A stretch of 9,456 nt of DNA, from the IMG/VR virus record IMGVR_UViG_2675903324_000008, positions 1 to 9,456 of that record; one strand, given 5' to 3'. The translations under genes and the position numbers were made by a program. Below the pieces are notes generated by a model, which had not been told where the DNA came from, did not search any database, and saw only the letters and a list, made by a program, of their open reading frames with translations. Below, one piece after another: positions 1 to 6,461 of the stretch. Position 1 is the first letter of the stretch. The number at the start of each line of letters is the position of its first letter. The DNA is from a virus (Duplodnaviria; Heunggongvirae; Uroviricota; Caudoviricetes).

Positions 1-86
1 CCAGCGTCATCGGTGTGCCCTTGCTGGTCTGTTTTACCTGCGGGTCGTCCACCAGCCGCCCGTAAGCGGCTATCTGTGCTGTCATG
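1..86 (-). CDS. Single-stranded DNA-binding protein-like (N-terminal 28 codons only; gene continues past window start)
   Basis: ATG at 86-84 overlaps stop of upstream ORF (ATGA); translation MTAQIAAYGRLVDDPQVKQTSKGTPMTL fits the SSB OB-fold N-terminal pattern G-x-L-x-x-D-P-E/Q-x-x-x-T-x-x-G. Confidence 0.4.
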
Positions 87-333
87 ATTCCACCTCTCCG
101 GTTTTAACGTTGATGGTTGTTACCTGTTCCGCTTCGGCAATCTCACGTTCTGTCAGCGTGGCAAAGTTTGCCGCTGCTGTGGTCATGAATGCGCTTATCA
201 GGTCGGGATGTTCCTTCGCGTATCCTTCCCCCGCGTGGCGGTCTATCGTTCTGATTGCCACCTTTAAGGCGTGCTCTGTCATGTCTAACGCTTTATATTT
301 TGGCTCTGTTCTGTCTCTGTGTTTTTGAGTCAT
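82..333 (-). CDS. Hypothetical protein, 83 aa (alternative upstream start at 426 or GTG 465)
   Basis: ORF in track (82..465); internal ATG at 333 preceded by GAGGTG Shine-Dalgarno 5 nt upstream; stop overlaps next gene start. Confidence 0.45.
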   Translation of the reverse strand: MTQKHRDRTEPKYKALDMTEHALKVAIRTIDRHAGEGYAKEHPDLISAFMTTAAANFATLTEREIAEAEQVTTINVKTGEVES

Positions 334-540
334 TTGCCCACCTCTACCCACTTTTTTCGCCCACTTTTTACGTTTTCCCACTTCGTCCAACGTGGGAAAT
401 TTGGGATTTATATCATCTTGTTTCATAGGTATTTTTTTAGTGCCCACTTTTTGGGATATATACACGTGGGAAAGTGGGTAATTTTGTTAAAATTACGTTA
501 AATTGCCCACCTTTCCCACTTTTAATGCCCACTTTTTACA
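334..540. repeat. Iteron cluster, putative replication origin
   Basis: At least 10 copies of core CCCAC(C/T)TTT(TT) in direct and inverted orientation (e.g. 336-346, 346-357, 359-369, 375-384, 392-397 inv, 442-452, 466-479 inv, 505-512, 514-522, 527-537) flanking an AT-rich stretch 401-440; lies immediately 3' of the replication gene. Confidence 0.6.
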
Positions 541-1945
541 GTGGTCCTACATCATCACCGTCAATGTAGATCACGTCGTCTTTTTCCAGTTTGGCTAACC
601 ATCGTTTAAGGTGTTTTGTGTCATACCCCAGCTTTTTCATATCGTCACGTAACAGCGGGATCGTGCACTTGTCGCCGTGCTGTGTGCGTGAACGTATGCA
701 CCCCCATAGCGCGGTATGGTTTTCCGTCTTGTTGCCTGCCTCCTCGATGCGCTCCAGTTCAACGGGAGGGCGCGGCTTATCCACCACCACCAGCGACGTG
801 ATTAACTCCCCGTCAGCGTCGGTAAAAAGCTCCACCACGCGTAAGTCATATGCGGCTTCTTTGAGTTCCTCCGCGTCCTTCATTTTGGTGCATGAGATAA
901 CCAGCGCTTCGCTTCCTGCGTCCTCCCTGCGTATCCGGTATTCAGCATCCAGTGATGCACGAAATGCGCTGGAACCGCGCGCGCCTTTCGTCTCATCCTT
1001 GCCGGAATGGTGAACCACCAGCACCGTGGCCCCTGTGCGCCGTTTCAGTTCGTCACACCCACGGATAAACGCCCCCATATCACGGGAATCATTTTCATCA
1101 TTGCCGCCAAAGCAACGCGCCAGCGTATCCAGAATAATCATTCGGACCGGTTTACCCGTTTCCCGCTCCACCTGGCTGGCAGCGATAACCATTTCATCAA
1201 TATCAAGCGGGGCAGCCGGAAAGATGGGACGGTTTACCAGATACAGATTTTTCACCTGCTCATCGTGCACAACCTCCCAGGCTTTTACACGACGCGGAAC
1301 GCCTATACCGCCTTCACCAACCACATAGAGAACAGCGCCATGCGCCACCCTGCGGCCTCCCCACTGGCGGCCCGTGGAAACGTGACACGCCCACGATCCG
1401 GCAAGGAATGATTTATAGGAACCGCTCGCCCCGTATATACTGCAAAGCGACGATGCCGGAATAATTCCCTTTACCACGTAATCAAGCTGTGTGTCGTATC
1501 CGGTAGATCCAACGCTCATCGGTAGCTTGGTTTTTCGCTGGGGGATTTTTTTCATGACCAGGCTTTCCCCGCGTTCCCATGCCTCCCTAAGCCGTGGAAG
1601 CTGGTCGCTCCATTCCTCCAGCAATTCGAAATTTTCAGAAAGTAGCCGCGCCTCCTGGACTCCGGCGATCGCCAGTTTCGTGGCGATGGTTAACAGCTGC
1701 GGCTCTTCAATATTTCCGGCGCGTATCACCGTCGCCCTGTATCGCCCATCATCAACAATCTGGAGGTTATCCAGTTCGCTTAACTGATAACGCCCCAGAT
1801 AAACGGGAGGGACTGGATCGCCTGCTTTTTTGGCCTGTGCAATGATGTAATGCTCTGCGAATGAGTGAGCATCAATACCCGCAAAAATAATCGCATCGGT
1901 GTATTTATCTTTCGGTAATAGTTTTACGTTCGGTGCCAGTTTCAT
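536..1945 (-). CDS. Replication protein with AAA_25/RecA-like ATPase domain (RepA-type helicase/primase-associated), 469 aa
   Basis: Walker A GASGSYKS, Walker B MIILD, and VLVVHHSGKD motif typical of the AAA_25 family; AGGAG Shine-Dalgarno 7 nt before ATG at 1945; C-terminal region could be a DNA-binding domain. Confidence 0.8.
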   Translation of the reverse strand: MKLAPNVKLLPKDKYTDAIIFAGIDAHSFAEHYIIAQAKKAGDPVPPVYLGRYQLSELDNLQIVDDGRYRATVIRAGNIEEPQLLTIATKLAIAGVQEARLLSENFELLEEWSDQLPRLREAWERGESLVMKKIPQRKTKLPMSVGSTGYDTQLDYVVKGIIPASSLCSIYGASGSYKSFLAGSWACHVSTGRQWGGRRVAHGAVLYVVGEGGIGVPRRVKAWEVVHDEQVKNLYLVNRPIFPAAPLDIDEMVIAASQVERETGKPVRMIILDTLARCFGGNDENDSRDMGAFIRGCDELKRRTGATVLVVHHSGKDETKGARGSSAFRASLDAEYRIRREDAGSEALVISCTKMKDAEELKEAAYDLRVVELFTDADGELITSLVVVDKPRPPVELERIEEAGNKTENHTALWGCIRSRTQHGDKCTIPLLRDDMKKLGYDTKHLKRWLAKLEKDDVIYIDGDDVGPL

Positions 1946-1976
1946 TTTTTACTCCTGAATCCGTTAATCATGGTTT

Positions 1977-2099
1977 TCAGAATCCCGCCACGCCCTTAAT
2001 CATTACCGTACCGCCGTACTGGTCGCGGTAAATATCACCGCGCGTAAATTTAGGGTGAGTGTTGCCACTGGCAGTTAAGCCAGAATATTTAAGCTTCAT
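1977..2099 (-). CDS. Small ORF, 40 aa (MKLKYSGLTASGNTHPKFTRGDIYRDQYGGTVMIKGVAGF), hypothetical
   Basis: Fills the gap between small-gene array and rep; own translation; weak GGAG 10 nt upstream; not in ORF track because under 60 aa. Confidence 0.2.
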   Translation of the reverse strand: MKLKYSGLTASGNTHPKFTRGDIYRDQYGGTVMIKGVAGF

Positions 2100-2104
2100 T
2101 ATTT

Positions 2105-4946: not shown

Positions 4947-4964
4947 TTCTTTTTTACCTCACAT

Positions 4965-4991
4965 ACAAAAAACCCCGCATTGCACGCGGGG
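4965..4991 (-). terminator. Rho-independent terminator between AlpA/Xis-like gene and Bro gene
   Basis: Minus-strand stem CCCCGC/GCGGGG (4973-4978/4986-4991) with 7-nt loop followed by UUUUUUGU (plus-strand A-run 4965-4972). Confidence 0.5.
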
Positions 4992-5005
4992 TATGAAAGA
5001 TATTA

Positions 5006-5209
5006 TTAGTGGGGATTGGCTTGTTCTCGTTGTTTATCTAACCATGCTTCTACATCTCTACGGTGCCAGGTATGTCGTCGTCCAATTCTGAACGGCTGAG
5101 GAAAACCATTATTCTCATCTTTCCAGAAATTGATGAATGCACTCATTGCTCCATATCGCAAGATTTTCATTACGTCTTTAGTAAATAAAATATCTTCATT
5201 GGTATTCAT
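5006..5209 (-). CDS. AlpA/Xis-family DNA-binding protein (excisionase or activator), 67 aa (track ORF starts at 5230)
   Basis: ATG at 5209 preceded by GAGGAGG SD; sequence FPQPFRIGRRHTWHRRDVEAWL matches the AlpA/excisionase family C-terminal pattern; 13 nt downstream of int stop. Confidence 0.7.
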   Translation of the reverse strand: MNTNEDILFTKDVMKILRYGAMSAFINFWKDENNGFPQPFRIGRRHTWHRRDVEAWLDKQREQANPH

Positions 5210-5222
5210 TTGCTGAACCTCC

Positions 5223-6461
5223 TCAACCATTTACTACTCTTAAACCTTTCATACCACCGGATCTATTAATTACCCCTTTTCTCGCATCATCAAAAAAATC
5301 ACCGACCCATTGCATCATGATCTTACGCTGTTCTAGATAAGTAGTTCTATTATAAACATCTCTTATTTTATCACCACTTTTATGCGCCAATGCAGCCTCG
5401 ATTACATCGGGGTTAAATCCCTCCTCATTTAAAAGCGTACTCCACATTGAACGAAAACCATGTAACGTTACAATCCCTTTGAACTTGCTGGCAGCAATTG
5501 GGGTCTTGATAGTATTCCTCCCCATAGGCGCATCTTTTGTTCTGGAGGAAAAAAACACATAACGCCCTCTTTTTATTTCCTGCATTGTTCTGAGGATACT
5601 AATAGCCTGTGATGACAAGGGAACAACATGTTCACGATGGCATTTCATTTTATGCGCGGGGATAATCCACAAGCCAGAATCAAAATCAATCTCTGACCAC
5701 TCTGCTTTAATTGCCTCACCTGGCCTGACCATTGTCAATATCTGGAATAAAAGTGCATTATGAGCTATTTGATAGGTATGAGGCACACTATCCCACCAGC
5801 TCAGAAATTCAGGCAATCTTTCAACAGGTAGTGCTGCTAATGATTTATTTTTCTTTCCTGTGAATGCAGTCTTTATCTTAAGTAATGGATTTGTTTTCAA
5901 TGTTCCACAATTTACAGCATAATTCATAATTTCATTTAATCTTGATATTAATTTTTTTTGCAACGCATTCTTATCGGATACGGCATCCAGAGCATTAATA
6001 GCTACTGGTGCTGTAATTTTTTCTATACTGTACTTACCAAAGAAAGGAACAAGATATTTGTATACTTCATATTCGATATTATACAGCGTAGGTTTCCGCA
6101 ATTCAGATCCCTTTTTAAAAGCGAACCATGCATTAGCAACAGCTTCAAATGTCTGTAGATTTTTTAGTGACATCTCAATTTTACGATTTTTCTTCTCCGT
6201 CACTGGATCAACTCCACGTGCAATCATTCGCCGAAGTTCATCACGTACTTCCCGTGCTTCCGCGAGTGAGAATTCAGGAAAACGTCCTATCGTGTATGTC
6301 TGCCGTTTCTTCGTTATCGGATGGCTATAACGGAAACGCCACACTTTCCCACCGGCTTTACTCACATTCAGCAATAAACCGAACCCATCATAAACGGCAT
6401 AGTCCTTTTCACGTGGTTTCATCCCCTTAACTTCAGTCACGGTTAATGGCTTTACCGACAT
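5223..6461 (-). CDS. int: Tyrosine site-specific integrase, P4-type, 412 aa
   Basis: N-terminal arm-binding-like domain (GFGLLLNVSKAGGKVWRFRY); catalytic-region motifs MVRPGE, HGFRSMW, LAHKSG...RDVYNR (R, H-x-x-R, Y); GAGGG SD before ATG 6461. Confidence 0.9.
   Translation of the reverse strand: MSVKPLTVTEVKGMKPREKDYAVYDGFGLLLNVSKAGGKVWRFRYSHPITKKRQTYTIGRFPEFSLAEAREVRDELRRMIARGVDPVTEKKNRKIEMSLKNLQTFEAVANAWFAFKKGSELRKPTLYNIEYEVYKYLVPFFGKYSIEKITAPVAINALDAVSDKNALQKKLISRLNEIMNYAVNCGTLKTNPLLKIKTAFTGKKNKSLAALPVERLPEFLSWWDSVPHTYQIAHNALLFQILTMVRPGEAIKAEWSEIDFDSGLWIIPAHKMKCHREHVVPLSSQAISILRTMQEIKRGRYVFFSSRTKDAPMGRNTIKTPIAASKFKGIVTLHGFRSMWSTLLNEEGFNPDVIEAALAHKSGDKIRDVYNRTTYLEQRKIMMQWVGDFFDDARKGVINRSGGMKGLRVVNG

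Follow-up and report, generated by a model that had tools for sequence, protein, structure and literature searches.

The DNA stretch analysed here, referred to as the window, comprises 9,456 nucleotides (positions 1 to 9,456 of the Caudoviricetes record IMGVR_UViG_2675903324_000008). Its positions 1-6632 very probably belong to a helper-embedded phage-inducible chromosomal island (HE-PICI), a satellite integrated site-specifically in the GpA-type large terminase gene (terL) of a lambdoid prophage. Work of Tommasini, Mageeney & Williams (2023; PMC10111431) described the HE-PICIs, with Eco567.11capE of E. coli NRG857c (11capE below) as their founder, and mapped 491 of them; their 14 sites lie in counterparts of lambda late genes, with which the islands are co-oriented. 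The window holds about two-thirds of a PICI-type satellite of some 10 kb. Read from right to left, it carries the Rz/Rz1 genes, the small terminase gene (terS) and a terL fragment of the helper, followed by the integrase gene (int), a helix-turn-helix (HTH) gene, a Bro-N gene, two plus-strand genes and a leftward operon; all its substantial genes but two lie on the minus strand. A preliminary description of this DNA had proposed a satellite or PICI-like architecture, which is borne out by the island's own integrase, AlpA-like gene, Bro zone and iteron replicon and by its lack of tail and lysis genes. The whole inventory listed there was recovered (int, AlpA-like gene, Bro-N, divergent region, AAA_25 protein, iterons, SSB). 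What that description overlooked is the context: judged by its flanking sequences, the island lies within the helper terL and not beside a prophage.

Insertion site and attachment sites

How is the island joined to the prophage? The terL fragment next to the integrase gene encodes 335 aa that are 100% identical to residues 1-335 of the intact 707-aa TerL of E. coli STEC1585, and the gene is split at codon 335 of 707, right after the ATPase domain. Alignment of the intact allele (attB), the window junction (attL) and the far junction of a relative (attR) gave a common block TTGGATG(g/t)AGGG, within which TTGGATG is the crossover core. The helper-side half of attL and the helper-side half of attR, joined at the core, make up attB. 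Across the insertion point the uninterrupted TerL reads ..IASFWM|EGPAAAF.., and the attR string ..TTCTTGGATGGAGGGG.. precedes the nuclease half of terL. The search for attL and attR, suggested in the preliminary description, was thus carried out, with the core found in the window and attR taken from relatives. The extent given there (up to 6461) has to be revised: the island ends at the att core at 6626-6632, and at its other end it runs past position 1. By this alignment the island is inserted precisely within the GpA-type terL of a lambda-like (lambdoid) prophage and separates its ATPase domain from its nuclease domain. Its orientation is that of the helper late operon, as int, the AlpA-like gene, the replication gene, Rz, terS and terL are all on the minus strand.

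Could the island instead be a chromosomal PICI or a P4-like satellite that stands on its own and just happens to lie beside a prophage? Its gene content is PICI-like, and sister islands with an identical RepA and the same late zone do occupy the chromosome, at tRNA-Pro(GGG) by yejM. However, the flanks are the 5' half of terL here and its 3' half in relatives, and attL and attR together rebuild the intact allele. Moreover, no island protein matches the psu-delta-sid operon, epsilon or the alpha primase of P4 in Pfam, PHROGs or NCBIfam, in line with the earlier statement that sid/psu/delta-like genes are lacking. ARAGORN found no tRNA in the window, which argues that the island is not at a tRNA site. 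A chromosomal location next to the prophage is refuted by the att alignment and the terL identity, and this explanation is given very little credence.

The junctions also show how the two halves of terL are delimited. From its island side attL supplies a TAG stop just past the core (..TGG ATG TAG; window 6623-6632), because of which the ATPase half forms a clean 335-aa open reading frame (ORF). At attR, the nuclease half shares its reading frame with the internal ATG of the core. The reconstructed attP, of 507 nt, carries the repeats ATGAGTT and GGACTA three times each.

The complete element, its spread and its proposed behaviour

The part of the island beyond position 1 was read from relatives, which were found by looking up the identical RepA protein in public assemblies. 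One of them, L004, is 99.6-99.9% identical to window positions 1-7911 and contains the complete island, 10,125 bp from core to core. There the genes from int to RepA are followed by SSB, a 64-aa ORF, a fusion of a ClpP-like protease with the major capsid protein (MCP), a cos-like block, attR and the nuclease half of terL, and past these come the portal and remaining head genes. The ClpP-protease/MCP fusion of L004 has 629 aa and shares 51% identity with the 659-aa fusion of the helper; every relative examined has such a fusion, about 1 kb past window position 1. The cos-like block, near the 3' end of related islands, aligns with the helper cos region of the window (8127-8337), which lies upstream of terS, at 84% over 215 columns; just two mismatches occur among the first 91 bases of the alignment, and GGGCGGCG is part of the block. 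A like layout is seen in the Shiga toxin 2a (Stx2a) prophage of OkiPb01698, in the O121:H19 strain 16-9255 and in Salmonella enterica.

These relatives bear on two earlier claims. The first, that capsid, tail and lysis genes are absent, holds for tail and lysis (no tail, holin or lysis gene lies between attL and attR in L001, L004 or L011) but not for the capsid, which is lacking merely through the cut of the window. The second took structural genes beyond position 1 as the mark of an ordinary prophage. Such a gene is present, yet the element is not an ordinary prophage, because the capsid fusion is its sole structural gene and attR is reached some 0.5 kb past its end (some 2.4 kb from its start).

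Is the island then a capsid-forming PICI (cf-PICI), building its own heads and packaging itself? A full-length ClpP-protease/MCP fusion in the relatives would fit this. However, the genes that separate cf-PICIs from PICIs are terL, terS, portal, head-tail adaptor/connector and HNH (PMC10085698), and the complete 10.1-kb element of the relatives has no terminase or portal gene between its att sites, no adaptor/connector, no HNH and no full-length terS. The sole TerS-like item is a 74-aa DUF1441-like protein in Salmonella relatives, and the cf-PICI explanation is barely credible. This small protein (L093 16202-16426) is encoded after the capsid gene and the cos copy and is 30% identical to the N-terminus of the helper small terminase; its sequence and position make it a candidate for redirecting packaging. 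In the E. coli islands this place is taken by an unrelated ORF (phrog_1561), of 93 aa in L001 (8577-8858) and truncated to 40 aa in L004. The 93-aa ORF was considered as TerS-like and rejected, as it has no similarity to the helper small terminase.

How widespread is the element? The integrase gene with the attL segment was found in 90 of 5426 complete E. coli genomes (~1.7%). The conserved core chromosomal region raised as an alternative in the preliminary description is therefore not what we are dealing with; the island is variably present. A query across the junction returned 57 full junctions, and about 500 genomes have an uninterrupted terL, in which the match begins at window 6621, at the junction. 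A truncated large terminase is annotated beside the integrase in nearly every listed record, and some genomes have two copies. Carriers include O157:H7, O145:H28, O121:H19, O103:H2, O111:H8, O45:H2 and O22:H8, many of them being STEC (E. coli that produce Shiga toxin) of O157, O145, O121, O103, O111 and O45. The prophage of OkiPb01698 encodes both the A and B subunits of stx2a (L001 26530-27770), about 8 kb upstream of the insertion in late-operon direction. A search of the STEC genomics papers in the searchable library found no description of this element.

Such a distribution helps to judge whether the insertion is dead, that is, a decayed and immobile remnant that permanently inactivates a defective prophage. 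STEC prophages are often defective (PMC2669165), a search of phage records with the island gave no match, and the DUF4222 gene of this copy is truncated. Against decay, int, the AlpA-like gene, Bro-N, RepA, the iterons and the att core are intact. The integrase is at least 99% identical in 67 of the 90 carrier genomes, and integrases this similar are spread over several serotypes and sit in terL variants up to ~8% apart. That nearly the same integrase is met in different lineages and in terL alleles that have diverged, and in two copies in some genomes, points to recent site-specific spread and not to a fossil, which leaves the dead insertion as an unlikely explanation.

What would an HE-PICI at this site do upon induction? 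The insertion, the gene content and the cos homology are observed; the course of events is one that we infer after PMC10111431 and PMC6092414. As long as the island is integrated, the helper would be left with an ATPase-only TerL stub and no packaging. When the helper is induced, its replication would copy the island passively, and anti-terminated late transcription, coming through the lysis genes, terS and the 5' half of terL, would enter int and alpA. Int and AlpA could then excise the island and rebuild terL. For 11capE, excision came after the helper composite had excised and replicated (PMC10111431). The excised circle would be replicated by means of RepA, SSB and the iterons, and the island's cos copy would be cut and packaged by the restored helper terminase. 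The protease/capsid fusion of the island may build heads, contribute to them or resize them, with portal and tails provided by the helper. Precise excision would serve the satellite itself, because it has no terminase of its own. If this is true, the packaging enzyme of the helper and the packaging of the satellite itself both depend strictly on excision of the satellite, and in STEC the island would act as a switch, so far unrecognised, that controls whether infectious Stx phage is produced. In at least one case the terminase that is split belongs to an Stx2a prophage, which could affect the packaging and transmission of Stx phages.

Several points weigh against this interpretation. The left end of the island, the capsid gene, the cos copy and attR come from relatives and lie outside the window. 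This copy carries one lesion: about 146 bp present in nine of the nine relatives compared are replaced by TT at 1981-1982, in this copy alone, which truncates the DUF4222 gene. The AlpA-like protein is very divergent and fails the Pfam cutoff, with a sub-threshold HTH_17 match alone. No terminator-like site was found between the terL fragment and int; however, no sigma-70-like minus-strand promoter is predicted anywhere in the island either, which makes any argument from promoters a weak one. For the founder HE-PICI, excision could be induced but particles were not recoverable (PMC10111431). Finally, the published survey kept integrase matches of at least 400 bits (PMC10111431), and the integrase of this island scores 86 bits against that of 11capE, at 25% identity; the doubled tgTGTATTGCantgTGTATTGCa present on both attP arms of the published clade has no counterpart here either, as exact TGTATTGC is absent from the window and none is visible in the reconstructed attP.

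Gene content of the island

The features of the window are collected in Table 1.

Table 1. Features of the 9,456-nt window, ordered by position (., no strand assigned)
Feature	Position	Strand	Basis or remark
SSB gene, first 28 codons, cut by window edge	2-85	-	translation MTAQIAAYGRLVDDPQVKQTSKGTPMTL
83-aa conserved hypothetical, replication zone	82-333	-	phrog_1231 6e-53; same position in all relatives
Iteron array, putative origin	340-535	.	AAAGTGGG(C/T)A-type repeats
RepA-family (AAA_25) RecA-fold helicase, putative initiator-helicase	536-1945	-	PF13481 1.2e-43; phrog_2850 9e-223
DUF4222 gene, truncated, 40-aa stub	1977-2099	-	just upstream of repA
Four small ORFs	2105-2338, 2340-2561, 2554-2775, 2765-2995	-	phrog_2196, 24341/2512, 5146/2512, 1478
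Icd-like, first gene of leftward early operon	2992-3186	-	NF033153 phage_ICD_like 4.8e-18; phrog_1743 'transcriptional repressor' 1e-21
Leader stem-loop	3215-3249	-	9-bp perfect arms; invariant TCTAACCA immediately 3'
Operator-like repeats	3288-3343	.	inverted repeat and third copy of GTGAATACC
YlcI/YnfO-family gene, divergent	3385-3690	+	NF041551 1.3e-16; phrog_6522 1e-44
75-aa hypothetical	3748-3975	+	called in relative L004; no family match (Pfam, PHROG, NCBIfam)
Bro-N domain protein, anti-repressor-like	4368-4946	-	PF02498 4.9e-20; phrog_2593 'anti-repressor' 1.5e-85
Divergent AlpA-like HTH, 67 aa, excisionase/activator candidate	5006-5209	-	PHROG 'excisionase and transcriptional regulator' 9e-7
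P4-type tyrosine integrase, 412 aa	5223-6461	-	Arm-DNA-bind_3, Phage_int_M, Phage_integrase
Island-side arm of attL (P' arm)	6462-6625	.	three copies of ATGAGTT; two of GGACTA (reconstructed attP has three)
Helper terL, N-terminal ATPase half, 335 aa, ends ..FWM*	6623-7630	-	PF05876 GpA_ATPase 6e-82
Crossover core TTGGATG, 7 bp	6626-6632	.	attB/attL/attR alignment
Helper small terminase (terS), DUF1441	7627-8103	-	PF07278 8e-49; phrog_141 'terminase small subunit' 8e-65
Helper cos region	8127-8337	.	contains GGGCGGCG at 8291-8298
Helper Rz/Rz1 spanin genes	8556-9080; Rz1 8618-8803	-	PF03245 2.7e-49; PF06085 1.7e-21

The iteron origin that the preliminary description placed after the AAA_25 gene is real. 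All six exact copies of CCCACTTT in the window, together with three one-mismatch copies, fall within 347-535, in both orientations, and this cluster of nine sits immediately downstream of repA and before the next gene. The iterons are dispersed, and they were detected by a word search (Tandem Repeats Finder returned nothing). The same description had called the replication module atypical, which does not hold: homologues of RepA in the same DUF4222-repA layout occur in 656 of the 5426 complete E. coli genomes, and there are more than 1000 RepA-related proteins in Escherichia and Salmonella. Replication modules also swap among islands at the terL site, with RepA in seven of the best 30 E. coli matches and a primase-type protein listed for the rest; the Salmonella terL-site relatives have a DUF927 protein in place of RepA. 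By these sequence comparisons, the replicon is ordinary for this kind of satellite. What can be said of RepA from structure prediction? The AlphaFold2 model has low confidence (mean pLDDT, the predicted local distance difference test, of 66.7), and with it Foldseek retrieved RecA-fold ATPases alone (Rad51/RadA, KaiC), with no match for the two domains that are modelled confidently, one N-terminal (1-125) and one C-terminal (400-469). The model would thus confirm, weakly, just the RecA-fold core. The SSB-like gene noted earlier is also real, but the window holds its first 28 codons only; their translation equals the N-terminus of the 140-aa L004 SSB (PF00436, 7e-17).

The preliminary description had further proposed a divergent repressor-like switch, and the sequence lends it support: the YlcI/YnfO gene on the plus strand faces the Icd-like gene on the minus strand, and the 198-bp intergenic region between them contains a perfect 11-nt inverted repeat (AAGTGAATACC-16 nt-GGTATTCACTT). 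The operator-like repeat has seven matches in the window against 1.9 expected, three of them in the divergent region. No cI/Cro-type repressor was identified in the island. The 5' leader of the Icd-like gene and early operon carries the stem-loop of Table 1, which is kept in every related island examined, helper-embedded and chromosomal, in E. coli and Salmonella, 11capE included. Ten distinct versions were collected, three of the ten pairs show compensatory changes, and there is no U-tract. No credible RNA family, C4/isrK included, came out of the Rfam searches, the one match over the hairpin being to RsaJ at chance level. This hairpin may represent a regulatory RNA element of this group of PICIs that has so far gone unrecognised. 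The four small ORFs that follow in the operon have no match in Pfam, NCBIfam or PADLOC, and of ten island proteins PADLOC recognised none as known defence cargo.

The integration and Bro zones complete the island. The integrase is at most 40% identical to its best matches in species-representative genomes or phage records. These species-representative relatives were set aside as generic P4-type enzymes, uninformative on late-gene tropism. The AlpA-like gene comes directly after int and on its strand, an order also seen in Gram-negative PICIs. Its protein is not matched by the Phage_AlpA model of Pfam, which does match six of the seven aligned sequences at E<=1 (five homologues with 58-85% identity, and the HTH protein of 11capE). 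A profile of the homologues, which included the AlpA of 11capE, matched the PDB entry 8c3t 'AlpA family' with E=2e-4. The Bro-N gene has terminator-like hairpins on either side (4398-4421 and 4972-4992). Between the plus-strand genes and Bro-N lie ~390 bp (3976-4367) in which no gene is called in the relatives; terminator-like hairpins stand in this interval or at its edge, at 4175-4202 (plus strand) and at 4398-4421 (bidirectional).

Comparison with known satellites

Where does the island stand among the described satellites? The preliminary description held that it fits no described family cleanly, yet it matches the four-zone layout of Gram-negative PICIs and the HE-PICI configuration. The published zones of HE-PICIs are integration (int and AlpA), Bro, Replication and a Late zone with captured helper head genes (PMC10111431). 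The first three are in the window, and the Late zone is in relatives only, which are 99.9% identical over the overlap. Like 11capE, the island lies within a late gene of a lambdoid helper prophage, is co-oriented with it and has a length of ~10-11 kb. The backbone is also nearly the same (int, AlpA/HTH, YlcI/YnfO, Icd-like, DUF4222, a replication protein, a small hypothetical, SSB and capsid), and the conserved leader hairpin before icd is shared. The two differ in their replication protein, a primase in 11capE and a RepA/AAA_25 helicase here, and in their late genes, which in 11capE encode a lambda-E-type capsid and a decoration protein and in the relatives of this island the ClpP/MCP fusion. 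The target is different too. The published gene-A sites are Terminase_1:132 and :246 only, whereas here a GpA-family terL is entered between the ATPase and nuclease domains, outside the 14 (15) catalogued HE-PICI sites. The supplementary files of PMC10111431 do not contain the term 'GpA', and the att strings of the island are absent from their att alignments. Judged by its sequence, the island is an HE-PICI in configuration and organisation, and its integrase falls outside the published clade.

The Gram-negative cos-type PICIs, such as EcCICFT073, also offer a close parallel. In common with this island they have a replicon of their own with the origin next to it, a cos that resembles the helper's, capsid homologues and no terminase, and behind int they have alpA where the island has its AlpA-like gene; but they are chromosomal and act on their helper in trans only, whereas this island resides within its helper. 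No Rpp-like packaging-redirection gene was recognised in it. The tRNA-Pro site of its sister islands is that of EcCIED1a (Fillol-Salom et al. 2018, PMC6092414). These chromosomal islands (L003, L005-L009; for example L006 5136-15370) agree in RepA (identical), in the small ORFs and in the late zone with its ClpP/capsid fusion, and differ from the helper-embedded versions in the integration module only, their integrase being 38% identical; some of them have PerC instead of SSB. With the satellite phage P4 the island shares a P4-type (Arm-DNA-bind_3) integrase, a small AlpA/Vis-like HTH protein, a size of ~10 kb and, on the proposed mechanism, cos packaging by a helper, but the helper of P4 is P2-like and that of the island lambdoid.

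What, then, is new? The HE-PICI configuration and the four-zone layout are already known, and the replicon is ordinary. The modest but genuine novelty is a second, unrelated integrase lineage together with a GpA-type terL target that includes Stx2a prophages. It seems somewhat more reasonable than otherwise to assume that helper-embedding arose once more, within a lineage of P4-type integrases that has no relation to the published HE-PICI clade and targets the inter-domain linker of GpA-type terL. If so, the targets are lambdoid prophages of E. coli, Stx2a-converting ones included, and of Salmonella. Elements of this kind will be missed by satellite finders that bar nearby holin or tail genes and by surveys seeded with a single integrase. 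In the published view, helper-embedded satellites derive from a single integrase clade that is drawn to late genes. The present element suggests that the habit of inserting into the late genes of a helper is convergent and has probably been under-counted.

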